DNA from: an uncultured Poribacteria bacterium
Lineage (GTDB): Bacteria > Poribacteria > WGA-4E > WGA-3G
Length of the DNA: 64,000 nucleotides
Direction: 5' to 3'
Assembly: GCA_951813565.1 (NCBI GenBank)
Contig: OX638351.1
Coordinates: 192,001-256,000, forward strand
Below, piece after piece: positions 12,916-29,893 of the stretch (position 1 is the stretch's first letter; each line of letters starts with the position of its first letter). The notes under the pieces are model-generated. The model was not told where the DNA came from. It did not search any database and was given only the letters and a program-made list of their open reading frames with translations. The position numbers and the translations under genes are program-made.

Positions 12916-13124
12916 ATACTTGTCTTTCTCCGCGTAGGGCGGGGTCCCTGTGCCCCGCCAATGCTATCTGCACATTTGGCGTTGATATAAAATGTCAATT
13001 CCTATAGTAAGCGCGCCTATCCTTATATATAACGTGAGCTTGATAAATCCCGTAGGGAATCAACACCGAATGCGCCTACGGCATTCGGTGGGGTAGAACG
13101 GAAATGGACAATAAAAACAGACCC

Positions 13125-13303
13125 TAAAGAGAGGTTATTTTCTTCGTTCATTGCGTTTATAAATGCATAACCATAACAGAGCTCCTCTAATTCCTCGGGT
13201 TCATAATCAATACTTCCTGATTGATCATTGTCAGCAATAATAGAGCTTACAATAATGCAACTGACCATCACAAAAAGAAAACGGAAAAAAGTCGTTTTTT
13301 TAT
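13125..13303 (-). pseudogene. Remnant of secreted partner gene B7 of the cassette array
   Basis: Frame reads KKTTFFRFLFVMVSCIIVSSIIA-DND (signal-peptide-like); one G appears to be missing from the ATG (aaggaAT-aaaaaaacg); 3' part replaced by REP-derived DNA. Confidence 0.6.
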
Positions 13304-13308
13304 TCCTT

Positions 13309-14055
13309 CTAATGTAGGTTTAGGTACTGATATGGATCAATACCTGTAGTCTCAAAATCTAAAACTTGTATGTGGGGTGGTGGATTTAAAAGGTCAATAT
13401 CTGCAGGAGGCGGACTTCCACCTTTTATGCGTGTTATAAAAGGTTCCAGAGTCCCATCAGGTGCTTCACGCTCTTCCACGATGATATAATACGTGTTGAA
13501 GAAGTGAGGATACACTTTGTCGTTTTCAATAGAAGCTCCCTCAAAGTTCCTTATTCCTTCTGACCAGAGTTTGACCAAAACCCGCTCCATGAGTTCAAAA
13601 CGTCTTTGCTTATAGGATGGCAGACGTTCGTAGTATTCCATATCCCGCCAAGTAATACCGTAGGGATAATCAGCAGGGACTTTTGGAAACGGACCGAACC
13701 CGTGTGGTGATATAGGCACTTCCGCTGTCTCAGCGTTTTCTGATGGCTTTTCAGTTGATTGTGACTGTACCGCCACTTCGGGCCCTTCTGCCCCCCTATC
13801 AGGGGCTTCAGTTACAGGTTTCTCTGCGGTTTGCATATTGCTTTCCACAGGTGTCACATCGGCCGCCTGTTCTGCCTCGTTGTTTACCGCTTTTCGGGTT
13901 ATTTCCCGTTGACGGAGTAACTTAGCGGATTCCACTGCCTCTTGTCTATAAGGTGCTGTATCGTGTTGGTACCATAAATAACACGCACCTGCAATTATTA
14001 TCAGGAGGGCAATAGCACCAATAAACCATTTATTAGTGATGATGTCGCGAATCAT
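13309..14055 (-). CDS. Cassette protein A7: N-terminal membrane anchor, acidic linker, class-I C-terminal domain
   Basis: Shared N-terminus MIRDIITNKWFIGAIALLIIIAGACYLWYQHDTAPYRQEA; SPHGFGPFP, ELMERVLVKLW and GIDPY motifs. Confidence 0.9.
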   Translation of the reverse strand: MIRDIITNKWFIGAIALLIIIAGACYLWYQHDTAPYRQEAVESAKLLRQREITRKAVNNEAEQAADVTPVESNMQTAEKPVTEAPDRGAEGPEVAVQSQSTEKPSENAETAEVPISPHGFGPFPKVPADYPYGITWRDMEYYERLPSYKQRRFELMERVLVKLWSEGIRNFEGASIENDKVYPHFFNTYYIIVEEREAPDGTLEPFITRIKGGSPPPADIDLLNPPPHIQVLDFETTGIDPYQYLNLH

Positions 14056-14203
14056 CTATAACCTCCGATTGTTGTGTGACACACCACATTGACGTGTCTG
14101 TTATGAGAGTTTGCTCGATGCACCGTGGTTTTCCACTTGTCAGTGGAGGACGCGCACTATGCGCTTTGTGTATTCGGTGAGGTATCTTCAGTAATTAACA
14201 ACA

Positions 14204-14233
14204 ATTATACAAGAACTGAAACAAAATGCTCAA
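14204..14233 (-). promoter_or_regulatory. Sigma70-type promoter of cassette 7
   Basis: TTGAGC-18-TATAAT on the minus strand, flanked by two AATTAACAAYAATT boxes; same position in the other cassettes. Confidence 0.7.
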
Positions 14234-14374
14234 GCAATTAACAATAATTTATGTGAAACGGGTGATGGGATATTATGATCGACTCTGCTATTTTTCTCAT
14301 ATTGTGCGCAAGGTGAAAGCGTTTGTCAGTTTATAGCAAAATTTAGGAAAAGAGTGAAGTAAGTGAAAAAGTAA

Positions 14375-14402
14375 AGGCAGATACCCAATCGGATACCTAC
14401 CT
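14375..14402 (-). terminator. Terminator after B6
   Basis: Imperfect hairpin AGGCAGATACC...GGATACCTACCT followed by a T-rich run on the minus strand. Confidence 0.6.
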
Positions 14403-14432
14403 ATAGATTGTGAAGATATATAACGCCGCCGG

Positions 14433-15011
14433 TTACCAGGGTATATGAGAGTATGCGTCCAAAGCACCATTCCAATTCATGTCATAAGCATAACCGTTTA
14501 TTGAACCTGATGTAGAACAATCTGATGCTGTATTCGAAGGATGAGGATATTGACCTTGTAACGTCTTTGATTCGGAATGATATGCTTTGGCACGATCATT
14601 GTGCCTGCCTTCAAATTCTGGATAGCCGCCACTATAATCCCAAGGACCAAAGTCACTATCTTTGGTCTCACCGTCCACATATATTAACGCATCCACCCAA
14701 TAATAACCCCTGTAGAAATTGCTGTTGCACCTAATATTTGCCTCACAACTCCATGATGCGTAGGAGTATGCAGTGACAGGTACATTTGCAGTAGTCGTTT
14801 CAGTGCTGGTGTCGGCAGAAAAGGGCCATTCATAATCACTCGCGTTTTTATACCACTTGTCAGTATATCTTATACCAACTAAAGTATTGCTATTGTAGCT
14901 GTGTCCCCATTCACTATGTCCACCATTGTTTGAACCTTCGTTATGATCTGAGAAAACGATAGAAGTACCCAGACATAACAGCGTTATTGATAAGTACGAG
15001 AGTATTCTCAT
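14433..15011 (-). CDS. Cassette protein B6: secreted variable protein
   Basis: Sec signal peptide; S/Y/W/G-rich; GYYWVDA motif; ends AYSHIPW; starts 7 nt after the A6 stop. Confidence 0.85.
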   Translation of the reverse strand: MRILSYLSITLLCLGTSIVFSDHNEGSNNGGHSEWGHSYNSNTLVGIRYTDKWYKNASDYEWPFSADTSTETTTANVPVTAYSYASWSCEANIRCNSNFYRGYYWVDALIYVDGETKDSDFGPWDYSGGYPEFEGRHNDRAKAYHSESKTLQGQYPHPSNTASDCSTSGSINGYAYDMNWNGALDAYSHIPW

Positions 15012-15018
15012 GAGGTAT

Positions 15019-15753
15019 TTACTCCTTTTTGCTAAGTTCTAAGAAGGAATACGGATCGATTCCTGCTTCATTACGACTAAGAACTGTAATGCCTTCAGGA
15101 GGAGGTTGTCCTGCCTCCAATGCTGCTTCTATAGCATCAAAGTCATCATCGGGGTGCCCCGTAATCCTTCGAATGAATTCTCCATTTTCTGCCCATTGAA
15201 CGTAGACAGTGCCTAATATGTTTGGATAGACTTTACCGTTTTCAAAGGAAGCGCCATCCGATCGAATACCTTGATTCCATAACTTGATGCGAACCCGTGA
15301 CATTAATTCCCCCTTTACAGTTTTGCCCCAGAATTCCCATTCGAATTTGTCTGGTGGAATAGGATAATCTGCTGGCACTTCTGGATAGGGACCGAAACCG
15401 AAAGGCGACACAGGCACATCCTTTGCCTCAGTGGTTTGGGCAGAGGTTTCGGATTGTTGTTGTCCCGCCGCTTCGGTGTTATTTTCCACTTCAGCGGTTG
15501 ACCCGTTGATAGATTTCTCTGTGGTTAGCGTATTGCTTTCCGCAGGTGCTTTCTCTGCCGCCTGTACTGCTTCGTTGACTGTATCCACTTTTTTAGCGGC
15601 TTCTTGTTGACGGAGTAACTTAGCGGATTCCGCTGCTTCTTGTCTGTAAGGTGCCGTATCGTGTTGGTACCATAAATAACACGCACCTGCAATTATTATC
15701 AGGAGGGCTATCGCACCAATAAACCATTTATTAGTGATGATGTCTCGAGTCAT
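15019..15753 (-). CDS. Cassette protein A6 (class I)
   Basis: Shared N-terminus; VSPFGFGPYP, ELMSRVRIKLW and GIDPY motifs. Confidence 0.9.
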   Translation of the reverse strand: MTRDIITNKWFIGAIALLIIIAGACYLWYQHDTAPYRQEAAESAKLLRQQEAAKKVDTVNEAVQAAEKAPAESNTLTTEKSINGSTAEVENNTEAAGQQQSETSAQTTEAKDVPVSPFGFGPYPEVPADYPIPPDKFEWEFWGKTVKGELMSRVRIKLWNQGIRSDGASFENGKVYPNILGTVYVQWAENGEFIRRITGHPDDDFDAIEAALEAGQPPPEGITVLSRNEAGIDPYSFLELSKKE

Positions 15754-16125
15754 CTATAACCTCCGATTGTTGTGCAACACGCCACAACGGCATGTCTGGT
15801 ATGAGAGTTTGCTCGATGCACCGTGGTTTTCCACTCGTCAGTGGAGGACGCGCACTATGCGCTTTGTGTATTCGGTGAGATATCTTCAGTAATTAACAAC
15901 AATTATACAAGAACTGAAACAAAATGCTCAAGCAATTAACAATAATTTATGTGAAACGGGGGATGGGATATTATGCGAAGTTGTGCTATTTTTCTGATAT
16001 TGTGCGGCGGGCGAAATCGTTTATAAGTTTATAGCAAGGTGTAGGGAAACAAAAGCGTGGTAAAGGACTGAAGGTGGGTGAAAAGTAAAGGCAGATACCC
16101 ATAAAGGATATCTGCCTCTACTTTT
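15606..16125 (-). repeat. Conserved cassette block, copy 6
   Basis: Direct repeat of the copy 7 block. Confidence 0.9.
16081..16125 (-). terminator. Terminator after B5
   Basis: AAAAGTAAAGGCAGATACC...GGATATCTGCCTCTACTTTT hairpin. Confidence 0.75.
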
Positions 16126-16132
16126 ATTAACG

Positions 16133-16609
16133 TTAAAAACTGGCGTCAGCTTTGTCTGTACTGCTATCATCATCTGGAGAAACATCCGCGTCAGCCGAGA
16201 CAGTAATATTACGGGGACTTCGGAAGTAGAATTTCTCTGGATGATAAAGCGAATCACTGTCATGCCCCTCATAACGCTCTATTATTACAGGCTTACTCTG
16301 TACAAATAGGCGATAAGCTCCAGTATTCGTTTCGTTATTCGAATTGAGTCCGGTTGTCCAGAAACCGGCGAGTTCCGTGCCTTCTGTGTAGGGAATACCC
16401 CAATCTCTACCTGTAGATTTCGAAACGACTGCCTGTGCCCCCGCGGAGTGTACGACGTTTGATTCTGTACGCACTATCCAACCAGTGCCATCGGCGTTAA
16501 ATTGCTGAGCATTTGTATCAGCATGGTGAGCATCTATATGTGAAAGTGTTGTAATCGCAATAAGTGCGATAATTATCAAAAATGCTCTCACAAACTTTTT
16601 AATATACAT
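16133..16609 (-). CDS. Cassette protein B5: secreted variable protein
   Basis: Signal peptide; GAYRLFV motif; ends in F; AAGGAG RBS just after the A5 stop. Confidence 0.85.
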   Translation of the reverse strand: MYIKKFVRAFLIIIALIAITTLSHIDAHHADTNAQQFNADGTGWIVRTESNVVHSAGAQAVVSKSTGRDWGIPYTEGTELAGFWTTGLNSNNETNTGAYRLFVQSKPVIIERYEGHDSDSLYHPEKFYFRSPRNITVSADADVSPDDDSSTDKADASF

Positions 16610-16624
16610 TAGTAAATCTCCTTT

Positions 16625-17389
16625 TTAATTTTTTGTCTTGGAAATACCAAGATATGCATACGGATCAATGCCTTCCGTTTCACCATCTAACACACGCATA
16701 CCCGGAGGTGCAATACCAAGACGCATCTGCTCTGGAGACAGAGTCCTTCCTTTGACGCGTGTAAAATATCGGGTTATAGTGCCATCAACCTCTTCTCTTT
16801 CCCCATACCACACATAGATGGTATTGGGATAGTTAAAATAGATTTTGTCGTTGGCACCGCCTATGCCGATCCAGTTACGATGCAGTCCTTCTTGCCATGC
16901 TTTTATCGCCACACGAGACATCAGTTCTGCTTCCTCAGGTAGCATGATATTCGGAAACTTGGGATGATCCCAAATCGGTCTATAAGGATTTCCTACGCTA
17001 TCAAGCATACCTTCTGGTACTTCCGGATAGGGCCCGAACCCGAACGGAGACACGCGCACTTCTGATTCCGCTGCGTTTTCTGATAGCGTTTCCGATTGTT
17101 GTCCCGTCGCTTCGGTGTTGTTTTTCACTTCAGCGGTTGACCCGTTGATAGATTTCTCTGCGGTTGGCGTTGTGCTTTTCGCAGGTGTTACATCGGCTGC
17201 CTGTTCTGCCTCGTTGTTTTCCATTTTTTGGGTTGTTTCCCGTTGACGGAGTAACTTAGCGGATTCGGCTGCCTCTTGTCTATAAGGTGCCGTGTCATAT
17301 CGGTACCATAAATAACACGCACCAGCAAATATTATCAGGAGGGCAATAGCACCAATAAACCATTTATTAGTGATGATGTCTCGAGTCAT
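16625..17389 (-). CDS. Cassette protein A5 (class I)
   Basis: Shared N-terminus; VSPFGFGPYP, ELMSRVAIKAW and GIDPY motifs. Confidence 0.9.
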   Translation of the reverse strand: MTRDIITNKWFIGAIALLIIFAGACYLWYRYDTAPYRQEAAESAKLLRQRETTQKMENNEAEQAADVTPAKSTTPTAEKSINGSTAEVKNNTEATGQQSETLSENAAESEVRVSPFGFGPYPEVPEGMLDSVGNPYRPIWDHPKFPNIMLPEEAELMSRVAIKAWQEGLHRNWIGIGGANDKIYFNYPNTIYVWYGEREEVDGTITRYFTRVKGRTLSPEQMRLGIAPPGMRVLDGETEGIDPYAYLGISKTKN

Positions 17390-17730
17390 CTATAACCTCC
17401 GATTGTTGTGTGACATGCCACAACGGCATGTCTGTTTTGAGAGTATGCTTGATACACCAAAAGTTTTCCACTCTTTAGTGGTTGACGCGTTCTGATATAT
17501 GTTAGGTTTTCGAGATTGATGTTTCACCGTGATTAGCAATAATTATACAACATAAACATTGAAATGTCAGGTAATTAACGTAAAATAGCAGCTTTTGTGA
17601 ATAATAATACAAAAACTGGATGACTATAATGAGTCTGGAAGCTATGTGAAGTGGGTTTTGGGTATTATGACAGGCTGTGCTGCTTTTCTGATATTGTGCG
17701 GCGGGTGAAATCGTTTGTGAGTTAATAGCG
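17243..17730 (-). repeat. Conserved cassette block, copy 5 (most diverged upstream part)
   Basis: A N-terminus and RBS-proximal hairpin are conserved; promoter CTGACA-18-TATAAT; distal TTTTCTGATATTGTGCGGCGGG is retained. Confidence 0.8.
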
Positions 17731-17792
17731 AAGAACTAGGGTACTTGTGTGTGATTGACAACCAATCCCTAAAACGTCTTTCCGTGATCTAA

Positions 17793-18647
17793 TCAGCGTG
17801 GTGAGCGTGAGAAGTTGAGTCTCACTTTAGGATCGTAGTCGGATACTAAGACCTCGGGAAAATCAAGTATTGATTGGATAACCCAATCAATACGATTCGC
17901 TCCAGTATGAGGTTCCTTTTTATTAGGATCTGCATTGGCAGAATAGTACATTGCTGCTTCATGTAAGGGTCCTATTAATTTTATGCTAGCACGTTTGGGA
18001 TTATACTTTTCTTTTACCTCTTCTGCAATCGCCTTAATCTTGAGTAAATCTTCCTCGGAAACCTCTCTGATGTACTTCCCAATTAATTCCGGTGGACATT
18101 GTAAATGTTTTGGGACACCGTCTGCAAAGAATGGATTTATTGAGGTTTGGTAAGTTTTGCCTTCTTTTACTCTTTGTTCTCGTTTAAGTAAAATCCAGCG
18201 ATGGAAGTCCGCGAACCTTACATATTCGGGGAAATCAAGTATTGATTGGACAACCCAATCAATACGATTTGCTCCAAGTTGAAAATCCTCTCGTCCACGG
18301 TATCCTCTTTTCAGAGGATCTGAGTTGGCATGGTAATCCAATTGTTTCTTTGCATGAAGTTTCCATGTTTCTGTTACAGGACGTTTTGGGTTATAATTTG
18401 TAACTATCTCCTCCGCAATTGCTTGAATCTTAAGGATATCCTCTCTGGTGACTTCTGCGATATATTTTCCTATAAGTCGTTGCGGGCATTGTAGATGTTC
18501 TGGAACACCGTCTCCGAAAAGCGGATTTGATGAAGCTTGGAGGGTTATTTGATTTTGATTCCAAACCAGGATTCCCACAATGAAAAGAGCACAGACGAAA
18601 ACAAGCATTCCAAGAACGAAAAGGCTTGAAAAAAACTTGCGTAGCAT
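17793..18647 (-). CDS. Orphan membrane-anchored protein with two tandem copies of the A4 C-terminal domain
   Basis: N-terminal TM helix; twice S.NP.F.DGVP.HLQCP...YNP.R...ANRIDWV.QSILDFPE, a motif also present once in A4. Confidence 0.85.
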   Translation of the reverse strand: MLRKFFSSLFVLGMLVFVCALFIVGILVWNQNQITLQASSNPLFGDGVPEHLQCPQRLIGKYIAEVTREDILKIQAIAEEIVTNYNPKRPVTETWKLHAKKQLDYHANSDPLKRGYRGREDFQLGANRIDWVVQSILDFPEYVRFADFHRWILLKREQRVKEGKTYQTSINPFFADGVPKHLQCPPELIGKYIREVSEEDLLKIKAIAEEVKEKYNPKRASIKLIGPLHEAAMYYSANADPNKKEPHTGANRIDWVIQSILDFPEVLVSDYDPKVRLNFSRSPR

Positions 18648-18684
18648 TTGTTTTAATCTCCTTTGATATTGTCCAGAGTACCGT

Positions 18685-18738
18685 AAATATAATCAAGGCA
18701 CACCCATGAGCCTGTTCTTGTGTGCCTTGATTATATTT
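18685..18738 (-). terminator. Terminator after B4
   Basis: Long perfect stem AAATATAATCAAGGCACA / TGTGCCTTGATTATATTT. Confidence 0.75.
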
Positions 18739-18754
18739 TATCTAAAGATTCTAA

Positions 18755-19405
18755 CTACCCTTTAGGGGCAGCGATACTTGCGTTACCGAGTCCTATGTTT
18801 ACAAATTGGTTTGAATCGCCCGAAATTTCAGCTGCCATGTGCGGATCGGCTGTGAGATTCGTGGGAGTTGTAGGATGTGTATCACTATAGTAACAATAAA
18901 TAGACAAATCAAACGAGCGTGTTACTTGTTCTGCCCATGGCCAGAAGTGATCCCACCAATTTTGCACAGTACTTGCAACGGGATGTTTTTTGTAGGCAAC
19001 TTCAGACTCACCATTGCCGTGCGAATCATAAAAATAACTTCTACCTTCGCTGTCCCGCTCAGTACGATTTGTGTGAATGTTGCTTTTATCTGGAATTGAG
19101 GCATTGGCTGTATCTCCTGTTGCTTGAACCCACGCTGTAGCGTCGTAACTCGTGTTGTCACCAATAGGGGAAGCACTTGCCGAAGCATAGGTAGATGACC
19201 CGACATACCAATTTCCGTTTGGCTTATAGGTATGAGGCGGGGACCAGTCGACATGTGCGAAGGTGGACCCTGAAACATCAAGGAAGGTACTTGCGTCTGT
19301 AGCAGAATCAAACCAATCCTCTATGACTTGCGCGTCTGATAAATAAAATGAGAGGGTTAGTATAACCAGAATAATTGTAAGTGAAATCTGCAAACCTTTC
19401 TTCAT
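18755..19405 (-). CDS. Cassette protein B4: secreted variable protein
   Basis: Signal peptide ending SDA; ATGA overlap with the A4 stop; S/T/Y/W-rich. Confidence 0.85.
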   Translation of the reverse strand: MKKGLQISLTIILVILTLSFYLSDAQVIEDWFDSATDASTFLDVSGSTFAHVDWSPPHTYKPNGNWYVGSSTYASASASPIGDNTSYDATAWVQATGDTANASIPDKSNIHTNRTERDSEGRSYFYDSHGNGESEVAYKKHPVASTVQNWWDHFWPWAEQVTRSFDLSIYCYYSDTHPTTPTNLTADPHMAAEISGDSNQFVNIGLGNASIAAPKG

Positions 19406-20355
19406 TTGTTATCTCCTAATTTATAGATCCCTGTTGTATAGGGGTTAATATTGTAGTTCCAGCCTCCAAGGCGTTCAAGTTCTTCGTCAGTAGTTTCGTT
19501 TAAGTCAATGGTAATACGTTCAGCATCTGCACCTGAGTGCCCCAGACCGTAGATTGTTCCTGAGAATTTGTCATCATCACCAGAACTGTATATGAATTCA
19601 TAGTAGAATCCATTATCCGTGCGAAATTCTCTCCCATCCGGTAATTTGTGAAGATTCCAGTTGGGATCCCATCCTCCTTGTTCTACCATGATCATATCCG
19701 TTGCTCTAATTGAGTCTTCCCTAAGAAGTATAACAATTTCCGGAAAATCAAGAATTGATTGTATTCCCCAATCAAAACGATTTGCCGCTACACCGAGGCC
19801 CTTCTTGGTAGGATCTGCGTTAGCATGATAATATTTATCAGCCTCAATAAATTGTGGCCAGACTTCTGGTAGGGGACGGTTTGGGTTATATTTTTCAACA
19901 ACCTCGTTGGCAATTTCACCAATCTTACGAAGTGCCTCTATTGATACCTCTGTGGTGTAAATACCAACTAATTCTTCTGGACATTGTAGGTGTTTTGGAA
20001 CACCGTCCGCAAAAAGCGGGTTGGATGAAGTGAATCCACTAACATGAGACATATCAAAGACTGCTGCGTTTTTCTCTGTTTCCGACTCAGCGTCGGAAAC
20101 ATCAGAAATATCGGAAAGTTTTTCTTGTTTTCTTCCGAAAGATTCGCTTTGTGCAGTATCGGCCTGTTCCACTTCACTTTTATTGTCCGCTTTTTGGGTT
20201 GCTTCTTGTTGACGGAGTAACTTAGCGGATTCGGCTGCCTCTTGTCTATAAGGTGCCGTATCGTGTTGGTACCATAAATAACACGCACCAGCAAATATTA
20301 TCAGGAGGGCAATAGCACCAATAAACCATTTATTAGTGATGATGTCGCGAATCAT
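19402..20355 (-). CDS. Cassette protein A4 (class II C-terminal domain)
   Basis: Shared N-terminus but a different C-terminal domain (SSNPLFADGVPKHLQCP..., ends NINPY). Confidence 0.9.
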   Translation of the reverse strand: MIRDIITNKWFIGAIALLIIFAGACYLWYQHDTAPYRQEAAESAKLLRQQEATQKADNKSEVEQADTAQSESFGRKQEKLSDISDVSDAESETEKNAAVFDMSHVSGFTSSNPLFADGVPKHLQCPEELVGIYTTEVSIEALRKIGEIANEVVEKYNPNRPLPEVWPQFIEADKYYHANADPTKKGLGVAANRFDWGIQSILDFPEIVILLREDSIRATDMIMVEQGGWDPNWNLHKLPDGREFRTDNGFYYEFIYSSGDDDKFSGTIYGLGHSGADAERITIDLNETTDEELERLGGWNYNINPYTTGIYKLGDNK

Positions 20356-20720
20356 CTATAACCTCCGATTGTTGTGTGACACGCCACAACGGCATGTCTG
20401 TTATGAGAGATTTTTTGTGATGCACCGTGGTTTTCCACTTGTCAGTGGAGGACACGCACCATGCGCGTCTCTTTTTAGTGCGTTATCTCTCAGTGATTAA
20501 CAATAATTATACAAGAACTGAAACAAAATGCGCAAGCAATTAACAATAATTTATGTGAAACGGGTGATGGAGTATTATGAGAGGTTGTGCTATTTTTCTG
20601 ATATTGTGCGGCGGGTGAAATCGTTTGTGAGTTCATAGGAAAAACTTTGGGAACAAAAGCGGTGGAAAAGGGTGAGAGGTGGATGAAAAGTAGAGGCAGA
20701 TACCCATAGGATATCTGCCT
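20208..20720 (-). repeat. Conserved cassette block, copy 4
   Basis: Direct repeat; includes the terminator of B3 at 20694-20720. Confidence 0.9.
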
Positions 20721-20747
20721 GTATGAAATCAAAATTAGTAACAACAT

Positions 20748-21263
20748 TTACCAGGGGATATAAACGCTGGTACTCCATCTTTTCGAAGATTCTCTAACAT
20801 CTCTTGCAGTGGCGTAACCATCTGCAAGACAGTATTCTATAGTGTCGGTTGTATCATACATATTAAACCAGTCCATATCACTGGTATACGCACCTTTATT
20901 GAGATACCTACGCCATTCACCACTTCGACCATCCCACTTATTCATCTCTATTACCCAATCATGGTTTAGCGTGGCACTTACGGTATAAGTGCCTTTGAGA
21001 AATTGAGAAGTCATGGCTCTGACTCTCGTTGATGCCTTGACCTGATGTCCTATTCCCTGCCACGCTTTTGTTCCTGCAGAACTCCATACCTCAACATCAC
21101 CATCATAAGCAGTTCGGGTTACACTGGCAGGAATTGGTGGAGGATCTACTACCTCTTCAGTACCCCCTCTGTTTGTTCCAGGTGATGCTTTCAGAAGTGA
21201 AGTAAATGTTGCTATTGTACATAGAATTAGCATAAGGGTTAGAAAAATCGCCACATGTTTCAT
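20748..21263 (-). CDS. Cassette protein B3: secreted variable protein
   Basis: Signal peptide ending LKA; GTYTVSA motif; ends TSVYIPW. Confidence 0.85.
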   Translation of the reverse strand: MKHVAIFLTLMLILCTIATFTSLLKASPGTNRGGTEEVVDPPPIPASVTRTAYDGDVEVWSSAGTKAWQGIGHQVKASTRVRAMTSQFLKGTYTVSATLNHDWVIEMNKWDGRSGEWRRYLNKGAYTSDMDWFNMYDTTDTIEYCLADGYATARDVRESSKRWSTSVYIPW

Positions 21264-21276
21264 GATAAAAAACTCC

Positions 21277-22023
21277 TTAAGGTAAATCTAAAAATTCGTA
21301 CGGGTCTATGCCCGCATCTTTATATTCAATAACTGTAAAATGTTCCGGAATGTCACTTTCATAAATAGTACCTCGATGGGAATCTTGCCAGGATTCAGTT
21401 TCAGGGGATCCCTGTATCATACTGGCATATCTTCTCGTTCCAAAAGGGGTCCGTTGGGTTTTCCATTTAACAATCAGCGTATTGGGATACGTCGGATAAA
21501 CTAATCCATTTTCCATTGCTTCACCGTGAGTCTTTTTCCCTTGTTCCCATAGCTTAATGCTAACACGAATCATTAATTCATCGTTTTTATCCCAGTCGTA
21601 ACTCCAAAAATTCGGATCTTCTCCCCCAGGATACCCATCAGGTAATTTTGGATATGGACCGAAACCGTAAGGCGACACTTTTACTATTTCCGTCTTTTCA
21701 GTTTCCTGCATAGATGCAGTAACGGCTTCAGTTTGTTCATTGGAGCTTATTTCCGTTTCTGCACCAGTCGCATTGGTTAGCGGTTTCTCACCATGTTGCG
21801 TATTGCTTTCCGCAGGTGCTTTCTCTGCCGCCTGTACTGCTTCGTTGACTGTATCCACTTTTTTAGCGGCTTCTTGTTGACGGAGTAACTTAGCGGATTC
21901 GGCTGCCTCTTGTCTATAAGGTGCCGTGTCATATCGGTACCATAAATAACACGCACCAGCAAATATTATAAGGAAGGCTATCGCACCAATAATCCATTTA
22001 TTAGTGATGATGTCTCGAGTCAT
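21277..22023 (-). CDS. Cassette protein A3 (class I)
   Basis: Shared N-terminus; VSPYGFGPYP, ELMIRVSIKLW and GIDPY motifs. Confidence 0.9.
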   Translation of the reverse strand: MTRDIITNKWIIGAIAFLIIFAGACYLWYRYDTAPYRQEAAESAKLLRQQEAAKKVDTVNEAVQAAEKAPAESNTQHGEKPLTNATGAETEISSNEQTEAVTASMQETEKTEIVKVSPYGFGPYPKLPDGYPGGEDPNFWSYDWDKNDELMIRVSIKLWEQGKKTHGEAMENGLVYPTYPNTLIVKWKTQRTPFGTRRYASMIQGSPETESWQDSHRGTIYESDIPEHFTVIEYKDAGIDPYEFLDLP

Positions 22024-22389
22024 CTATAACCTCCGATTGTTGTGTGACACACCACATTGACGTGTCTGTTATGAGAGATTTTTTGTGATGCACCGTGGTT
22101 TTCCACTCGTCAGTGGAGGACGCGCACCATGCGCGTCTCTTTTTAGTGCGTTATCTCTCAGTGATTAACAATAATTATACAAGAACTGAAACAAAATGCT
22201 CAAGCAATTAACAATAATTTATGTGAAACGGGGGATGGGATATTATGCGAAGTTGTGCTATTTTTCTGATATTGTGCGGCGGGCGAAATCGCCACTAAAT
22301 TTATAGTGGGATTAGGGAGCAAAAGCGTGATAAAAACTGAAAGGTGTCTGAAAGAGTAGAGGCAGGTAACGTATTGGTTACCTGCCTCT
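21876..22389 (-). repeat. Conserved cassette block, copy 3
   Basis: Direct repeat; includes the terminator AGAGGCAGGTAAC...GTTACCTGCCTCT at 22358-22389. Confidence 0.9.
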
Positions 22390-22401
22390 GTTTGCTGTAG
22401 A

Positions 22402-22980
22402 TTAAAACGGCACATGTGCATAGGCACTATGCTGTACCGGTCCACCGCCATTGCCATCACCATCATCTCCTGAACCGCTGTCCCCACCCCCTCCTGGTAC
22501 CGGTGGAACTGGTGGTCTGAACCCAGTAATCCACGCCCACGAGGAAGCAAACGTAATATCGGGGAAGCCAGGAATAGGCCCAGCCCCTTTGGCAAAACTA
22601 GCAGATTGACTCTCGCTATCGTATGTACTTCCCTGAAAAGTACCAGGGTGCGCGCTTGGACCAAATCCTTGTATCCATACACTTGCAGAGACCCAATAAG
22701 TCCCTGTAAACATAGGGTCTACGGAATATGAGTACACAGCACTATTCGATCTGACTATATCTACATTATTATTGTTGTCTGTGTACGCTGCTCTATAAGC
22801 ATCTGCTTCAAGAGGGCCGTTAACATCATAGCCGCGTTCCCAGTTCCCCACCCAGCCTGTAGCAGGATCAAATTGTCCTGCGTCTTCCAAATCACGATTG
22901 GAAGTCTCACCTGTGAAACCTATAACGGCTACACCACAGAGTAAGGCTATTACCAGTAATCTGTAAATAATTCGTTTCAT
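22402..22980 (-). CDS. Cassette protein B2: secreted variable protein
   Basis: Signal peptide; GTYWVSA motif; Gly/Asp-rich loop; ends AYAHVPF. Confidence 0.85.
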   Translation of the reverse strand: MKRIIYRLLVIALLCGVAVIGFTGETSNRDLEDAGQFDPATGWVGNWERGYDVNGPLEADAYRAAYTDNNNNVDIVRSNSAVYSYSVDPMFTGTYWVSASVWIQGFGPSAHPGTFQGSTYDSESQSASFAKGAGPIPGFPDITFASSWAWITGFRPPVPPVPGGGGDSGSGDDGDGNGGGPVQHSAYAHVPF

Positions 22981-22993
22981 GAACTTATCTCCT

Positions 22994-23746
22994 TTATTTT
23001 AAGTTTAGAAAAACGTAGGGGTCAATGCCCCTCTCTCTCACTTCAATATCCTTCGGAATGTCACTCTCAACAAGTTTGCCTTTTCGTCGCATGATGTCAC
23101 TGAGAATTTTTCCCATGTAGGGGTCACCGCGCACACGGGATACACGTTTTTCTACAGTACCGTCTGGCAGTGCCTTATGATCCCATTCAATATAAACCAC
23201 CCCAGGAAGAGTAGGGTAAGCCAATCCGTTACTCATATTTCCACCGAGTGTTTGTATTCCTTGTGTCCAGAGCTTGATTTGGACGCGGATCAGCAGTTCA
23301 GCCTCTGCGCTGTAATCTTTGGAATAATCCCAAATATCTTGAGTCGGGTAATCCGGTGGGATATCCGGAAAAGGTCCAAAACCGTGAGGAGAAACGCGTA
23401 CTTCTTCAGCGTTTTCTGTTCCCTGCTTAGAGGCAGAAACATTCTCCGCTGCAGTATCGGTTTTCGCACCTGTTTCTAACACTTCATCAGTCATTTCGGT
23501 TATAGGTTTCTCTGCGGTTGGCGTTGTGCTTTCCGCAGGTGTCACATCGGCTGCCTGTTTTTCCGCGTTCTCAGTCTCCGCTTTTTGGGTTGCTTCCCGT
23601 TGACGGAGTAACTTAGCGGATTCCACTGCCTCTTGTCTGTAAGGTGCCGTATCGTGTTGGTACCATAAATAACACGCACCTGCAATTATTATCAGGAGGG
23701 CAATAGCACCAATAAACCATTTATTAGTGATGATGTCTCGAGTCAT
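22994..23746 (-). CDS. Cassette protein A2 (class I)
   Basis: Shared N-terminus; VSPHGFGPFP, ELLIRVQIKLW and GIDPY motifs. Confidence 0.9.
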   Translation of the reverse strand: MTRDIITNKWFIGAIALLIIIAGACYLWYQHDTAPYRQEAVESAKLLRQREATQKAETENAEKQAADVTPAESTTPTAEKPITEMTDEVLETGAKTDTAAENVSASKQGTENAEEVRVSPHGFGPFPDIPPDYPTQDIWDYSKDYSAEAELLIRVQIKLWTQGIQTLGGNMSNGLAYPTLPGVVYIEWDHKALPDGTVEKRVSRVRGDPYMGKILSDIMRRKGKLVESDIPKDIEVRERGIDPYVFLNLK

Positions 23747-24115
23747 CTATAACCTCCGATTGTTGTGCAACACGCCACAACGGCATGTCTGGTATGAGAG
23801 TTTGCTCGATGCACCGTGGTTTTCCACTCGTCAGTGGAGGACGCGCACCATGCGCGTGGTGTATTTAGTGCATCTATCTCTCAACAATTAACAATAATTA
23901 TACAAGAACTGAAACAAAATACTCAAGCAATTAACAATAATTTATGTGAAACGGGGATAGGATATTATGAAAGGTTGTGCTATTTTTCTGATATTGTGCG
24001 GCGGGCAAAATCGTTTATAAGTTTATAGCAGAGATTTAGGGAACAAAAGAGTGGTAAAGAGTGAAGGTAGGTAAAAAGAGTAAAGGCAGATACCCATAAG
24101 GATACCGGCCTGCCT
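23599..24115 (-). repeat. Conserved cassette block, copy 2
   Basis: Direct repeat; includes a degenerate terminator at 24084-24115. Confidence 0.9.
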
Positions 24116-24140
24116 GATTTATATCAGATCATGTTGTGCG

Positions 24141-24857
24141 CTAATGTGCACTTGCATTTGGACAATTCGGATTTGCGTCTGTACACTCATCACAGTTCGG
24201 GGTGAGATCCGAACTACTGGTGCTGCTACCACTATCATGTGTCCAGGTCCAGCTTGAATGTTCTACGGTCCAATGTCCATCACTATCCCCTGTAGTGGTA
24301 GCGGTGGCTCCGTTTTCCCATGTTCCAGATACCCCTAAGGGTAATCCAGCTCTGACCTTGTAATAATACGGAGTGTAGTGGACTACTCCGTCGCCTTCCC
24401 AGGGATATGTACCTTCTGCCTCGTTGAAAGTGCCTGTTTCTGTGGCACTAACTTCTACGTCATGGCCATAGGATCCGAACGGAACACCTGGAACATACCA
24501 TCCGATCTCTATAGCTCCAGTCAAGTTTTGTTCGTTACCAACGTCCTCACCATCTATCTTACCCCATAATTGTACTTGTGCAAAGCCAAGTCCATGTCCT
24601 TTACTTTCGAGTTTGATAACAGGATCCTTTGGATGGTTATTCCAGAGTTCCTCATCAAAAGAACCATCTGCGTTATAGTAAGAAACTTTGCGAAAGGTCC
24701 AGCCATCTATATTACAAGAAATTGTGGGACTTGTTACTTCTAAAAACTTATTAAAAGGGTTATGGTCAAGAGTGTTTATAACCGCATTGTGTGCATATAA
24801 ATTATAAACACAAACCAAAACGATGAGTGTAAGGATAATGTATCGTCGTTTTAACAT
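24141..24857 (-). CDS. Cassette protein B1: secreted variable protein with Cys-rich tail
   Basis: Signal peptide ending LYA; ATG abuts the A1 stop; ends TPNCDECTDANPNCPNASAH. Confidence 0.85.
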   Translation of the reverse strand: MLKRRYIILTLIVLVCVYNLYAHNAVINTLDHNPFNKFLEVTSPTISCNIDGWTFRKVSYYNADGSFDEELWNNHPKDPVIKLESKGHGLGFAQVQLWGKIDGEDVGNEQNLTGAIEIGWYVPGVPFGSYGHDVEVSATETGTFNEAEGTYPWEGDGVVHYTPYYYKVRAGLPLGVSGTWENGATATTTGDSDGHWTVEHSSWTWTHDSGSSTSSSDLTPNCDECTDANPNCPNASAH

Positions 24858-25634
24858 CTATAATTCTCCTTTCTCTTCTAAGATTGGAATTAAATAAGAG
24901 TAACCATGCTCTATGAGCGCAGCTCTCAGCTTTTCTTTCATAATACGTAGCGGTTTGTCAGGATCTGCTTCCTTTTCCTTTTTAGGTGCTACCCACAATG
25001 TACTGCCTTTCACAGGACGTTCCCTTTGTACTTCTTCGTACAATTGTCCCCATTCTGCCCAAAGTTGTTCTGCTTTCGCAGTGTTACCCTGCGCTTTTTG
25101 CCATCCTGCTTCTATTTTCAGTGCCCTGAGCATTTCATATTCCTCTAAAGTAGGGGTAAATCCTATGCCCATCTTGATTTCAACAATTGGCTCGCCTCTT
25201 TTATGTAAAATCGGTTTGCCGTTCTCGTCTAATAGTGGCACACCTGGAGACTTCCATCGATAGGTATACCCCCGCGGTGGAACTTTGAGTCCATGCTGCG
25301 TATAAAAGCTATCAAATATCTGCTGCTGTTGTTTTTCTGACAGTTTATGGAAATCGGAAGGAGTGAGTGTGTTCTCCGGATTTTCATCAGATGTTAGTTT
25401 CCCAGCAGCTGGCGTTTTGCTTTCCACAGAGGCATCGATTCCTTGTTCTCCTTCACTCTTATTGTCCACTTTTTTAGCGGCTTCTTGTTGACGGAGTAAC
25501 TTAGCGGATTCGGCTGCCTCTTGTCTATAAGGTGCCGTATCGTGTTGGTACCATAAATAACACGCACCAGCAATTATTATCAGGAGGGCAATAGCACCAA
25601 TAAACCATTTATTAGTGATGATGTCGCGAATCAT
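24858..25634 (-). CDS. Cassette protein A1 (class III C-terminal domain)
   Basis: Shared N-terminus; C-terminal domain lacks the GFGP and GIDPY motifs (VPPRGYTYRW...). Confidence 0.9.
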   Translation of the reverse strand: MIRDIITNKWFIGAIALLIIIAGACYLWYQHDTAPYRQEAAESAKLLRQQEAAKKVDNKSEGEQGIDASVESKTPAAGKLTSDENPENTLTPSDFHKLSEKQQQQIFDSFYTQHGLKVPPRGYTYRWKSPGVPLLDENGKPILHKRGEPIVEIKMGIGFTPTLEEYEMLRALKIEAGWQKAQGNTAKAEQLWAEWGQLYEEVQRERPVKGSTLWVAPKKEKEADPDKPLRIMKEKLRAALIEHGYSYLIPILEEKGEL

Positions 25635-25830
25635 CTATAACCTCCGATTGTTGTGCAACATGCCACAACGGCATGCCTGTTATGAGAGTTTGCTCGATGC
25701 ACCGTGGTTTTTCACTCGTCAGTGGAGGACACGCACCATGCGCGTCTCTTTTTAGTGCGTTATCTCTCAGTGATTAACAATAATTATACAATAGATGCAA
25801 TCAAATGTCAAGCAATTAACACTGAATTGT
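25487..25830 (-). repeat. Conserved cassette block, copy 1 (array head)
   Basis: A N-terminus, leader and promoter are conserved; the distal part differs from the internal copies. Confidence 0.85.
25783..25811 (-). promoter_or_regulatory. Consensus sigma70 promoter of cassette 1
   Basis: Perfect TTGACA-17-TATAAT on the minus strand; a second TTGACA...TATTAT lies ~64 bp upstream. Confidence 0.8.
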
Positions 25831-25928
25831 ATAATATTAACAATAATAATACACAAAAAATCATAAAATGTCAAGTAATTAACAATAAATTGTCGTTTTT
25901 TGACAATAATTATGCAAAATATGTTAAA

Positions 25929-27650
25929 ACCTACACTCCGCAGTTATGGATCTGGAAAATAAACATTTTTGACTTCTATTCCTAATATGTTGATAATCTT
26001 AGACTGTATTACATTTAGGTTTACGATAGTGCGTTGTATATGATCGTTTTGTTCTATCAATAATACGTCAATATTTTCAAACATTTGAAAGATGCGTCGG
26101 AGCGTTGGGGTTTGCGTGGGTTTACCGACTTGGTTGGGTATTGTTTGTTCCTGTTTTTCTAATTCCAACCGAACCCATTGTTCCGCAAGCGCATAAACAA
26201 GTAGCGAAAGTCCCATCACCATCAGTAATGCCATGATCCGTTGGGGTTTTTCTAAATATAGACTATTGGCAAAGAATAAAGGGTCTTTCAAAAACCGAAA
26301 ACCGCGTTCCACAGAGATGTTCTGTGCTTTATAGGCTTCAAGAATAGTGGCATCGTCAAGTAAAGTTGTATCTAACTCATTGGTAGCTAACACAAATCTG
26401 CCTTTGCTGCGTTTGAGTTTTTCAATCGCTTCTATATTCGCAACAGCTTCGCCCTCAATACGATAACGAAAGTGTGTGGGGTTATCTGTTTTTTTCGGTC
26501 GTCCCGATGTTGTGTAATGTGGAACAGAGATAATGGAGACGCATGGTTTATGATACTTCCAAGACTTGGATATTTCTGACACGGCAGCTTCAGCCGCTGA
26601 GTTGGTATCAAACGATTTATTTCGCAAGCGTTTGAGAGATGTTTCAGCAACAGTCTGTGCTTTGGCAATCTTTTTTTCTAAAGTCGCCACTTCACGATGA
26701 TACGCTGCTTCGGAATAAACAATTAGCCATCTTTGCGGGATATCTCCATAGCTGCTATCCACCGAAAGATAACGATACCCCTCAAGCGGTGCTGGCTGCA
26801 TATCTTCAGTAGAGATAGTTTGATAAAGTTCTTTGACAGCTTTGAGTGTTTCAGGAACACGCGTAATGAAACGCACATCACTGAGCACAGCAATGTTACG
26901 GGCAGTATAAAGCGCACTATCCGCTACAAAATAGGGCGCATCACTGCCACGCATTTGAGCCAGATACGCTCGGATCGTGTCAGGAAAACTTGTTTTATCA
27001 GCCTGATTTCCATCAAGTGCTTTGAACCATACAGGGAACTGAGACCGATAAGAACATAGAAGTTGAACAACCACTTGTTTGAGATCAGGGCGCTGATCAC
27101 GACTATACCCGTGAGTGATTTGGATCGCGTGTTCATCATCTGTTTCGGTATCATAGTTCCCATGAAAACTAAAAGTAGTGCTATCCAGATGAACAAAACG
27201 ATGGTCTATGTCAAATGTTGATAACGCCTTGGACGCAATCGTCGCAAAAAGTTCAGTGACCCCATTTTCATAAAGTGTATCTAAGGCACGCCCCAGACTA
27301 TCGTCCGTAAAATCGGCAGCACAGAGGTGAGGACGGATCAACAGGTCTACAGGTTTATTTTCAAAAAACTCTGGTGTCAAGTAGAGAGGGCGTGAAACAA
27401 AACCTAAAGCATTCAAGATCATTGCGGACACAGCTTCACCCACTGAAACTTTCCGTTTCGTTGGACCAATAAAAGTATCAATCGTGTCTATCAAGCCAAT
27501 ACGATCACACACACCGGCAACTATGCCGAGGTGATCTAAACGCTGAGTTGTAAAAGTAGGTTGAGTAATGATATTACCTCCTTATATGCAAGATATAAAG
27601 AGTATAACATAAATACTCAAAATCTGATTAAACAACTGCGGAGTGTAGGT
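25929..27650 (-). mobile_element. IS1634-family insertion sequence
   Basis: 17 bp perfect TIR ACCTACACTCCGCAGTT; apparent 5 bp TSD TTAAA (25924-25928 and 27651-27655). Confidence 0.9.
25944..27569 (-). CDS. IS1634-family DDE transposase
   Basis: LDHLGIVAGVC, HLDSTTFSFHG, GYSRDQRPDLKQ, FVADSALY and VERGFRFLKDP motifs; frame extends upstream to an ATT 7 nt after AAGGAGG. Confidence 0.9.
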   Translation of the reverse strand: MTQPTFTTQRLDHLGIVAGVCDRIGLIDTIDTFIGPTKRKVSVGEAVSAMILNALGFVSRPLYLTPEFFENKPVDLLIRPHLCAADFTDDSLGRALDTLYENGVTELFATIASKALSTFDIDHRFVHLDSTTFSFHGNYDTETDDEHAIQITHGYSRDQRPDLKQVVVQLLCSYRSQFPVWFKALDGNQADKTSFPDTIRAYLAQMRGSDAPYFVADSALYTARNIAVLSDVRFITRVPETLKAVKELYQTISTEDMQPAPLEGYRYLSVDSSYGDIPQRWLIVYSEAAYHREVATLEKKIAKAQTVAETSLKRLRNKSFDTNSAAEAAVSEISKSWKYHKPCVSIISVPHYTTSGRPKKTDNPTHFRYRIEGEAVANIEAIEKLKRSKGRFVLATNELDTTLLDDATILEAYKAQNISVERGFRFLKDPLFFANSLYLEKPQRIMALLMVMGLSLLVYALAEQWVRLELEKQEQTIPNQVGKPTQTPTLRRIFQMFENIDVLLIEQNDHIQRTIVNLNVIQSKIINILGIEVKNVYFPDP

Positions 27651-27855
27651 TTAAAATGAATATGAGCAAACGCTTTAGTAGGGACGATATGTTTATTCTT
27701 CTATGCCGTTCCTACGGAACTCAAGAGGCGTAGATAACATTTTTTCTATAAACATATCGTCCCTACGGGACTAAAGACACGGGCAAGATGGCAACACATA
27801 AAATTAACGGCATAGCAAAAAATCATCAAAATATTGAAAACTATATAACCCTGAG

Positions 27856-28015: not shown

Positions 28016-29893
28016 CTACTCCCAGAGCAGCACCGTTCCGTCATCACCCCCCGATGCGATGGTGTTGCCATCCGGACTGAACGATACGCTCCTGACCGAA
28101 CTCGTATGTCCTGTTAGCGTTCGGAGGTGGTTTCCAGTGTGTGTGTCCCACAAACGGATGGTGTCGTCCGAACTCCCTGATGCGATAGCGTTGCCATCCG
28201 GACTGAACGATATGCTACTGACCGAACTCGTATGCCCTGTTAGCGTTCGGAGGTGGTTTCCAGTTTGTGCGTCCCACAAACGGATGGTTTTGTCTTCGCT
28301 CCCTGATGCGATGGTGTTGCCATCCGGACTGAACGATACGGAAGTGACCGAACTCGTATGTCCTGTTAGGGTTCGGAGGTGGTTTCCAGTGTGTGTGTCC
28401 CACAAACGGATGGTGCCGTCCGAACTCCCTGATGCGATGGTGTTGCCATCCGGACCGAACGATACGCTATTGACCTGCCTCGTATGTCCTGTTAGGGTTC
28501 GGAGGTAGTTTCCAGTTTGTGCGTCCCACAAACGGATGGTTTTCTCCAGACTCCCCGATGCGATGGTGTTGCCATCCGGACTGAACGATACGCTATTGAC
28601 CCGACTCGTATGTCTTGTTAGGATTCGCCTGACCGAACTCGTATGTCTTGTTAGGGTTCGGATATTGTTTCCAGTGTGTGTGTCCCACAAACGGATGGTT
28701 TTGTCCCAACTCCCCGATGCGATGGTGTTGCTATCCGGACTGAACGATATGCTATTGACCGGACTCGTATGTCCTGTTAGGGTTCGGATATTGTTTCCAG
28801 TTTGTGCGTCCCACAAACGGATGGTTTTGTCTTCGCTCCCTGATGCGATGGTGTTGCCATCCGGACTGAACGATACGCTACGGACCCAACTCATATGTCC
28901 TGTTAGGGTTCGGATATTGTTTCCAGTTTGTGCGTCCCACAAACGGATGGTGTCGTCCGAACTCCCTGATGCGATGGTGTTGCCATCCGGACTGAACGGT
29001 ATGCTATAGACCCGACTCGTATGTCCTGTTAGGGTTCGGAGGTGGTTTCCAGTGTGTGCGTCCCACAAACGGATGGTTTTGTCATCGCTCCCTGATGCGA
29101 TGGTGTTGCCATCCGGACTGAACGATACCCTACGGACCCAACTCGTATGTCCTGTTAGCGTTCGGAGGTGGTTTCCAGTTTGTGCGTCCCACAAACGGAT
29201 GGTTTCGTCCCGACTCCCCGATGCGATGGTGTTGCCATCCGGACTGAACAATACGGAAAAGACCGAACTCGTATGTCCTATTAGGGTTCGGAGGTGGTTT
29301 CCAGTTTGTGCGTCCCACAAACGGATGGTTTCGTCCCGACTCCCCGATGCGATGGTGTTGCCATCCGGACTGAACAATACGCTATAGACCGATCTCGTAT
29401 GTCCTATTAGGGTTCGGAGGTGGTTTCCAGTGTGTGCGTCCCACAAACGGATGGTTTCGTCCCAACTCCCTGATGCGATGGTGTTGCCATCCGGACTGAA
29501 CGATACGCTATTGACCGGACTCGTATGTCCTATGAGTGTCTGTATTTGTATTCCCGTTCTGGTATTCCACAGCCGAATGGTTTTGTCCAAACTCCCCGAT
29601 GCGATGGTGTTGCCATCCGGACTGAACGATACGCTACTGACCGAATTCGTATGTCCTGTTAGCAGGTCGAGTGTTTCACCTGTGTGTGCGTCATAAAGCC
29701 ATATACCGATACTACTCGCAACCGCAAGACGAGCACCATCCGGTGAATACGCGATTGCATGTATCGTTCCTTTGCCGAGGCGCATTTTGGCACCTTCAGG
29801 CAGATTTTGTTGTGAAAAATCTTGGGCAGATGTATTTAGTGCGCAAATTAATGTCACAAACCCAATCAGAATCGAAAAACATTTGTTTTTCAT
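28016..29893 (-). CDS. Secreted WD40-repeat protein (14 repeats)
   Basis: Signal peptide, LPEGAKMRLGKG cap, and 14 repeats of GHT..V.SVSFSPDGNTIASGS.D.TIRLWD as near-identical 126 bp DNA units. Confidence 0.95.
   Translation of the reverse strand: MKNKCFSILIGFVTLICALNTSAQDFSQQNLPEGAKMRLGKGTIHAIAYSPDGARLAVASSIGIWLYDAHTGETLDLLTGHTNSVSSVSFSPDGNTIASGSLDKTIRLWNTRTGIQIQTLIGHTSPVNSVSFSPDGNTIASGSWDETIRLWDAHTGNHLRTLIGHTRSVYSVLFSPDGNTIASGSRDETIRLWDAQTGNHLRTLIGHTSSVFSVLFSPDGNTIASGSRDETIRLWDAQTGNHLRTLTGHTSWVRRVSFSPDGNTIASGSDDKTIRLWDAHTGNHLRTLTGHTSRVYSIPFSPDGNTIASGSSDDTIRLWDAQTGNNIRTLTGHMSWVRSVSFSPDGNTIASGSEDKTIRLWDAQTGNNIRTLTGHTSPVNSISFSPDSNTIASGSWDKTIRLWDTHTGNNIRTLTRHTSSVRRILTRHTSRVNSVSFSPDGNTIASGSLEKTIRLWDAQTGNYLRTLTGHTRQVNSVSFGPDGNTIASGSSDGTIRLWDTHTGNHLRTLTGHTSSVTSVSFSPDGNTIASGSEDKTIRLWDAQTGNHLRTLTGHTSSVSSISFSPDGNAIASGSSDDTIRLWDTHTGNHLRTLTGHTSSVRSVSFSPDGNTIASGGDDGTVLLWE

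Follow-up and report, generated by a model that had tools for sequence, protein, structure and literature searches.

Background

MafB/MafI, CdiA-CT/CdiI and the Rhs orphan cassettes are tandem polymorphic pairs in which constant regions serve as recombination arms, and orphan immunity genes are found among them. The toxins of the MafB, contact-dependent inhibition (CDI) and Rhs systems have a constant N-terminus and a variable C-terminal tip, and their spare cassettes are usually promoterless. Lipase-specific foldases (Lif) consist of a single membrane helix, a low-complexity linker and an outward domain specific for the co-encoded secreted protein. Here we describe an array of seven units of paired genes in an uncultured member of the Poribacteria, which are abundant, uncultured sponge symbionts. 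The array lies on the single 5.43-Mb contig of this genome (OX638351.1; the genome is called G000 here), within a stretch of 64,000 nt (positions 192,001 to 256,000) that is referred to as the window. The paired genes of each unit are designated A, for a membrane-anchored protein, and B, for an exported partner; loci fetched for comparison carry L numbers and other sequencing runs carry X numbers. From sequence comparisons, we estimate the probability at about one half that B would be an exported polymorphic antagonist and A its anchored periplasmic immunity protein, with orphan A genes being kept.

The closest described systems are TelC-TipC and EsaD-EsaG. According to two reports (PMC6193138, PMC9484751), TipC has an N-terminal membrane segment, an outward-facing toxin-binding domain and extra paralogues, tandem immunity paralogues in type VII clusters recombine through conserved blocks, resulting in loss and expansion, the toxins have defined activities and use type VII secretion, and the tandem copies are of immunity genes only. 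By analogy, the array system would work most like TelC-TipC and the recombining esaG/tipC clusters, with which it has in common a membrane segment combined with a putative outward binding domain and recombining paralogues, yet it is not a member: promoters are present per unit, the gene order is reversed in that the anchored protein is encoded ahead of its partner, this partner carries a signal peptide and is of no known activity, and the array proteins could not be linked to TelC-TipC or EsaD-EsaG by sequence or fold.

Several other identities were rejected. The array is not a MafB/CDI/Rhs-type cassette, because its constant part comprises the promoter together with the anchored partner, variation in B extends over the entire first domain, and the partner gene is located upstream rather than downstream. 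The Lif resemble A in layout, whereas the array differs from them by the retention and duplication of orphans, and a lipase-foldase operon was rejected because B has no lipase domain, A has no foldase family match and B3 is all-beta. A type VI effector-immunity locus was rejected because TssB/VipA, the one marker family searched, had no match in G000, which is 95% complete. The features of polymorphic toxin-immunity systems that are present include an adjacent, family-specific partner, the keeping of orphan and duplicated partners (with a sampling bias), and recombination through conserved blocks; no recognisable toxin domain was found for the six window B proteins in Pfam, NCBIfam or PHROG families. 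We regard the paired genes as a genuine polymorphic system of Poribacteria, apparently not described before, that follows a known logic with new parts. A literature search with Poribacteria terms, which mostly did not cover subscription papers, returned no description of such pairs.

Pairing of the A and B genes

A first-pass annotation of this DNA, made from the letters alone, had noted seven same-strand A genes with a repeated head. This was borne out, since the array occupies positions 13309-25634 of the minus strand, its seven A genes are near-identical over the first 50 codons in the open reading frame (ORF) listing, and the block that includes this head is present in seven copies. The same annotation regarded the A bodies as divergent, which proved only partly correct: A2, A3, A5, A6 and A7 are homologous over their full length, with 44-53% identity and a common C-terminal domain (type I), and only A1 (type II) and A4 (type III) carry other, unrelated bodies under the same head. 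Six of the seven A genes directly precede a gene with a signal-peptide-like start in the ORF listing. A closely coupled secreted B had been expected in every unit, and this holds for units 1-6, in which the A-B junctions are 0, 13, 13, -4, 15 and 7 nt, but not for unit 7, in which B7 is only a relic. Nor are all B bodies divergent, as had been proposed; an iterative profile built from B3 gathers 35 of 68 B proteins, including B2 and B6, and B2, B3 and B6 belong to one hypervariable family.

The pairing extends beyond the array. Among loci fetched with B, 63 of the 75 B-family ORFs stand directly behind an A gene; of the remaining 12, eight have an A within 700 nt, two are at the edge of the fetched stretch and two are without A. 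Full type I A genes were followed by a coupled ORF with a hydrophobic start in 58 of 93 cases, compared with 53 of 291 for other membrane-start ORFs. For type II bodies, a B1-like gene came next in 13 of 14 non-self loci, and for type III bodies a B4-like gene was located downstream in 5 of 14 loci, while the type I B profile gave no match in the 28 type II and type III loci. The heads vary freely across the type II and type III loci.

In 75 type I pairs, from which pairs with a B shorter than 150 aa or an A shorter than 200 aa had been left out (as in the charge analysis below), B identity tracked that of the A domain (rho 0.21, against at most 0.135 in 500 permutations), whereas its correlation with the head (rho 0.057) was inside the permutation range. 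For instance, the partner of the nearest B was among the top three by domain in 65 of the 75 pairs and by head in 33. These comparisons indicate that the A domain and B are inherited together and that A and B form cognate gene pairs in three independent family pairs, as the first-pass annotation had supposed for the pairing of the genes.

Recombination in the constant block

The block that precedes and opens each A gene runs in the order of a terminator-like hairpin, a sigma70-like promoter, a leader of ~145 nt and the A anchor, and the identity of its seven copies to the reference is 78-89% across 300 nt. In pairwise comparisons, mean identity is 0.90-0.97 over about -36 to +143 of the A start and falls to ~0.4 beyond +250. 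It had been suggested that these constant blocks act as homology arms, and two results agree with this. First, among nine copies of the block, 59% of the pairs among 57 informative sites are incompatible, incompatibility grows with distance, and none of 2000 permutations reached the observed value. Second, joints were found in another run, in which the A3 body was joined to an A6-like head, with 183 letters on the short side of the joint; in P0002 the A3 body is 100% identical and the linker is 88% A6-like. The promoter-leader-anchor block is thus a recombination mosaic. The crossover points are located in the head and in the conserved motif that opens the A domain, and therefore the A domain and B stay together. 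Host homologous recombination was probably the agent, with no dedicated recombinase needed; as previously claimed, no recombinase or reverse transcriptase gene was found inside the array, and the transposase gene of an IS1634-family element is located just upstream. The promoter-leader block also separates different A-B units in small arrays of other genomes.

The proposal that every unit has its own promoter was supported for six of the seven units by sigma70-like sites, while unit 4 has the same -10 element with a weaker -35. Terminators had been assigned to units 1-6, and hairpins were indeed found there, those after B1, B2, B3, B5 and B6 being of one family and that after B4 (18688-18735) being different. 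No Rfam family was found in the leader, and compensatory change in its hairpins was seen in 3 of 32 pairs among nine close copies, which does not suffice for proposing a structured RNA. Around each promoter, an AT-rich 11-nt motif occurs twice, ~45 nt apart (e.g., window 22165-22220) or, before unit 1, 63 nt apart (25774-25934), and this motif pair is a possible operator. A helix-turn-helix gene is located upstream of a sister array (G000:3722743-3723153) and of L220.

Loss of B and retention of A

In G000, all 31 type I domains are stop-free, one of them being without its 5' end, which was lost to an insertion sequence (IS). By our count, 16 of these domains have an intact B, 7 have a visible B relic and 8 are without B, and there is no intact B behind a broken A. 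In other genomes, an intact A was present for 34 of 37 intact B genes. Extra A copies adjoin B in L056, L203 and L205, a third anchored gene (gene C, see below) occurs in four loci, and A4 and gene C are kept without B4 in two loci. The ratio of non-synonymous to synonymous substitution rates (dN/dS) of the A domain was at most 0.35 in 58 of 59 paired comparisons and at most 0.26 in 12 of 13 orphan-orphan comparisons, while the median for B was ~0.45, with values above 1 in 3 of 20. By this measure, the A domains are under purifying selection whether paired or orphan, and B changes faster. In a triplet of orphan A genes (L003; G000:C1:366686-370330), 16-26 non-synonymous codon differences were found against 1-3 synonymous ones, mostly in the outer domain. 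As judged from these coding sequences, B is often destroyed while A is kept, duplicated and diversified.

This asymmetric loss is the main clue to function. The roles initially offered were a secreted effector with an anchored immunity protein, a secreted beta protein with a private chaperone, and surface-displayed variable ligands, and of these the first agrees best with the persistence of A after the loss of B and with its duplication in the absence of B, while the private chaperone fits the architecture and not the asymmetry. In such an alternative, A would be tethered to the membrane as a private chaperone or anchor for the folding, export or display of its own B, and B would serve as a variable adhesin or fibre subunit, with its tails in contact with the sponge matrix. 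The helix-linker-domain layout of A is like that of lipase foldases, A is first in the operon, and each A family has its own B family; furthermore, B has an all-beta secreted domain with FN3, PKD or immunoglobulin (Ig)-like tails, and the weak fold rows obtained for B3 include CsgH and adhesin domains (Z up to 5.3). However, a private chaperone should decay with its client, while an antidote stays useful against neighbours, and therefore the asymmetry favours immunity. Without intact B, 15 of the 31 type I domains in G000 are nevertheless stop-free, orphan A genes have been duplicated and diversified, and extra copies pile up beside one B. We consider a chaperone or display function rather doubtful for these reasons.

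Properties of the A and B proteins

The model of A3 contains a membrane helix (residues 6-32), a second helix (34-58), a disordered linker (~60-110) and a folded alpha/beta type I domain (111-248), so that the anchor-linker-domain layout is present; block values of the predicted local distance difference test (pLDDT) were 87-98 over the type I domain. The same domain is found behind a lipoprotein-like start at G000:1643210 and at the end of an exported 633-aa protein (G000:C1:2418169-2420070), and therefore the type I domain of A probably faces outward. By eye, the 633-aa protein also seems to carry a lectin-like domain. Residue 25 of A is a near-invariant Cys that closes the anchor helix and is lacking in many heads; it could be a lipidation site, though hydrophobic residues come after it.

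Searches of Pfam, NCBIfam and PHROGs gave no curated match for any array protein, only weak matches to the anchor helix, and a sequence search against solved structures gave no convincing match. The fold search with A3 gave no clear match among solved structures, one search being swamped by the anchor helix so that the A domain alone was barely tested, and an atlas search with the A domain gave scores no higher than 0.84. The lack of fold matches for A3 and B3 does not establish new folds.

The mature B3 model is all-beta with nine strands (mean pLDDT 94.3; predicted template modelling score 0.87). Mean pairwise identity of B over the first domain is 0.19, and longer B proteins carry added Ig-like, FN3, PKD or Cys-rich tails. 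B1, B4 and B5 were not matched by the type I B profile (probability 0.3-0.6%); B5 itself is outside the main B profile, and relatives of B5 occur behind other type I A genes. The fold rows for B3 include many pore-former caps and MspA at background level (Z 3.5-5.3, root-mean-square deviation 5.6-6.6 over 104-131 residues), and membrane attack by B would be a guess from these rows. A literature search on a Formosin D fold row gave nothing useful. The top language-model look-alike of B3 was DUF4879/YolA/SvfA-SvfB (PF16219; 189 shared features at a score of 0.89), a group of small secreted proteins that resemble it in size (PMC9007343), and this is a lead without profile support; a DUF4879 identity for B was rejected, as there were no matches in G000 at E values up to 10 and none in 104 B members. 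A lactococcin 972 (PF09683) identity was also rejected, the only match being a sub-threshold one elsewhere in G000.

The absence of a toxin signature in B might also be explained if A and B served self or kin recognition as a receptor and its ligand, without killing, or if A were a decoy for foreign ligands (phage, host or the B of other strains) and B a signal. The strict cognate pairing, the faster change in B and in orphan A, and the reuse of the A domain in an exported protein without B are all compatible with recognition. In contrast, only ~8 residues precede the membrane helix in A3, which are too few for signalling alone, and no conserved transducer gene was present in the gene neighbourhoods listed. 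We therefore regard recognition of this kind as unlikely.

Distribution of the unit

The named homologs are from Candidatus Poribacteria. The A profile matches 35 of 41 related genomes, including all 24 others of the genus, and none of five in one family; there are 37 matches in G000, compared with 3-27 in each of the 24 congeners. A search with this profile also gave 719 clusters when proteins were grouped at 50% identity. Of 121 genomes of the phylum, 41 were matched by the type I B profile, all within the family of the host. Contrary to what had been assumed, the novelty is not bound to the array: the unit is a dispersed pair of an A domain and B, present at ~30 places in G000 with 31 type I A domains, and the array is a local, recently homogenised cluster. 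A two-unit sister array is located at G000:3723250-3726354 (L013, G000:C1:3723250-3728075); it has 95% identity to unit 1 in the region upstream, and its second B is cut by a 99.9% identical IS1634 copy.

It might thus be argued that an ordinary, lineage-specific expansion of paralogous two-gene surface-protein operons took place, with the array a by-product of duplication and gene conversion without any selected cassette function. The A genes are mostly dispersed, none of the 20 relatives compared has the array 3' of the same met-zincin gene (the flanks being short in two), the homogenisation of 5' ends is to be expected of tandem arrays in general, and IS elements and repeats are abundant nearby. 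This explanation does not account for one head being common to three unrelated pairs, for the one-sided loss of B, for the large non-synonymous excess in the orphan triplet, or for the same block separating different units in the arrays of other genomes, and we consider it quite improbable. In the relatives (L104-L123), the met-zincin gene mostly precedes WD40 genes and runs, variable in number, of ~300-aa paralogues, which are another expanding family.

Proposed function

If B is an antagonist and A its immunity protein, each unit would be a self-contained, separately promoted operon for a cognate pair. B would be exported via its signal peptide and would present a beta domain that is hypervariable and in some cases extended by Ig-like, FN3, PKD or Cys-rich tails, and it would most likely act on neighbouring cells, probably related sponge Poribacteria. 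A would be held in the inner membrane by one helix, and its outward domain, at the end of a flexible linker of ~50 residues, would bind and neutralise its own B. At least three unrelated families of A-domain/B pairs occur under one interchangeable promoter-leader-anchor head, and recombination in the head and in the motif opening the A domain might allow an A domain and B to be gained, lost or re-headed as one. Orphan A proteins may provide immunity against the B proteins of other strains. G000 holds Omp85 and secretin genes, the latter including three in tandem, of ~1000 aa each, at G000:C1:3373080-3380259.

Several points weigh against this proposal. Linkage by adjacency alone could give the co-inheritance of A and B, which speaks for travelling together and not for binding, and the tendency of the A domain and B to be opposite in net charge (rho -0.39) lost significance once relatives were clustered (p 0.14-0.24). 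The tails of B are adhesin-like, with FN3 in 7 of 25 selected proteins and one weak PKD, no alignment column reaches 90% in 104 B sequences, no catalytic motif was found, and the fold search with B3 yielded no known-fold match (best Z 5.3). The anchored gene comes first, which is the reverse of the usual toxin-then-immunity order. An intact B stands behind a broken or missing A at least in L130, L155 and L180. The loci fetched with A are biased toward intact A, some frameshifts may be assembly errors, some of the relics called outside G000 are probably short intact B genes, and the low dN/dS between orphans may predate the loss of B.

In a wider and more tentative form, the units would constitute an undescribed system of strain-level antagonism or self-recognition in sponge Poribacteria. 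A recombining promoter-leader-anchor "socket" would take modules from at least three unrelated families of binder and exported protein, with a type I pair that has no solved fold match and with ordinary signal-peptide export, and the set of modules and orphan binders would decide which strains share a sponge. If B is an antagonist and A an antidote, this would mean a toxin class and an immunity domain that are both new, and strain compatibility in the sponge would have a genetic basis, while a chaperone or display function would imply a new private-chaperone route of surface display. Either way, several unannotated protein families are defined, two of them with confident models, and the six intact pairs at one locus provide built-in cognate and non-cognate controls.

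Assembly support and features of the window

A chimeric assembly had been raised as a concern. The bodies of all seven units were recovered without differences in contigs of run X2, which is possibly from the source study, and several units are also present in three runs from other studies; the units are therefore real. No contig of the other runs spans the whole array, and unit order rests on one assembly. Run X5 has no long piece over units 1-2 and run X10 has none over units 1, 4 and 5; these gaps would fit strains with differing unit sets, but no contig with a long side bridges them and they were not used as evidence.

From unit 1 to unit 7, the A genes start at 25634, 23746, 22023, 20355, 17389, 15753 and 14055, on the minus strand like all features below unless stated otherwise, so that successive starts are 1888, 1723, 1668, 2966, 1636 and 1698 nt apart. 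The description of the array as two-gene units of ~1.7 kb is thus adequate for most spacings (1636-1888 nt) but not for unit 4, which is ~3 kb long and includes gene C. The IS1634-family element (25929-27651; transposase 25944-27512) abuts the promoter region of unit 1, and two further copies at 99.9% identity are present in G000, one of them interrupting a B gene of the sister array.

Unit 1 has a promoter-like site (25811-25783) in a region with a hairpin-rich leader (25635-25811), followed by A1 (24858-25634; 258 aa), with the shared anchor head and a type II body, and B1 (24141-24857; 238 aa), its exported type II partner with a short Cys-rich tail. The constant block at 23747-24111 contains a terminator-like hairpin (24075-24111), a promoter-like site (23926-23897) and the leader, and precedes A2 (22994-23746; 250 aa), with head and type I body, and B2 (22402-22980; 192 aa), an exported type I beta protein. 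The block at 22024-22387 (hairpin 22351-22387, promoter-like site 22203-22174 and leader) leads to A3 (21277-22023), the type I protein modelled as helix, linker and alpha/beta domain, and to B3 (20748-21263; 171 aa), which has a signal peptide and the nine-strand beta domain.

In unit 4, the block at 20356-20720 (terminator-like hairpin 20720-20694, promoter region with the weaker -35 and leader) is followed by A4 (19402-20355; 317 aa), with head and type III body, and by its exported type III partner B4 (18755-19405; 216 aa), which overlaps A4 by 4 nt. The product of gene C (17793-18647) has a membrane anchor of its own and contains the first body domain of A4 twice (49% and 61% identity to A4). 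Unit 5 has a promoter-like site (17570-17542) and a more diverged leader (17390-17570), A5 (16625-17389; 254 aa), with head and type I body, and B5 (16133-16609), an exported protein of 158 aa. Unit 6 comprises a constant block (15754-16124; hairpin 16080-16124, promoter-like site 15931-15902 and leader), A6 (15019-15753; 244 aa), with head and type I body, and B6 (14433-15011; 192 aa), an exported type I beta protein.

The block of unit 7 (14056-14402) has a terminator-like hairpin (14402-14375), a promoter-like site (14233-14204) and a leader, and is followed by A7 (13309-14055; 248 aa), an orphan with an intact head and type I body. The B7 relic (13125-13301) matches the intact B of L030 with 62% identity across 61 aa, with its 5' end broken and a cut near 13136, where it is truncated by a multicopy repeat of ~110 bp (13023-13139, no strand assigned) with more than 20 near-full copies in G000. 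This repeat holds a short hairpin at 13065-13089, and similar repeats interrupt other B relics.

Elsewhere in G000, three head-like genes without a type I body and without B are present at L005 (G000:C1:1275434-1280792), one being intact with a different, probably helical body and two being short. The orphan A genes at G000:C1:1644312 and 3026014 precede similar large membrane-protein genes or relics, which are oligosaccharyl-transferase-like by eye. In the window, positions 28016-29893 encode an exported WD40 protein whose 13 repeats have a DNA identity of 68-89%.

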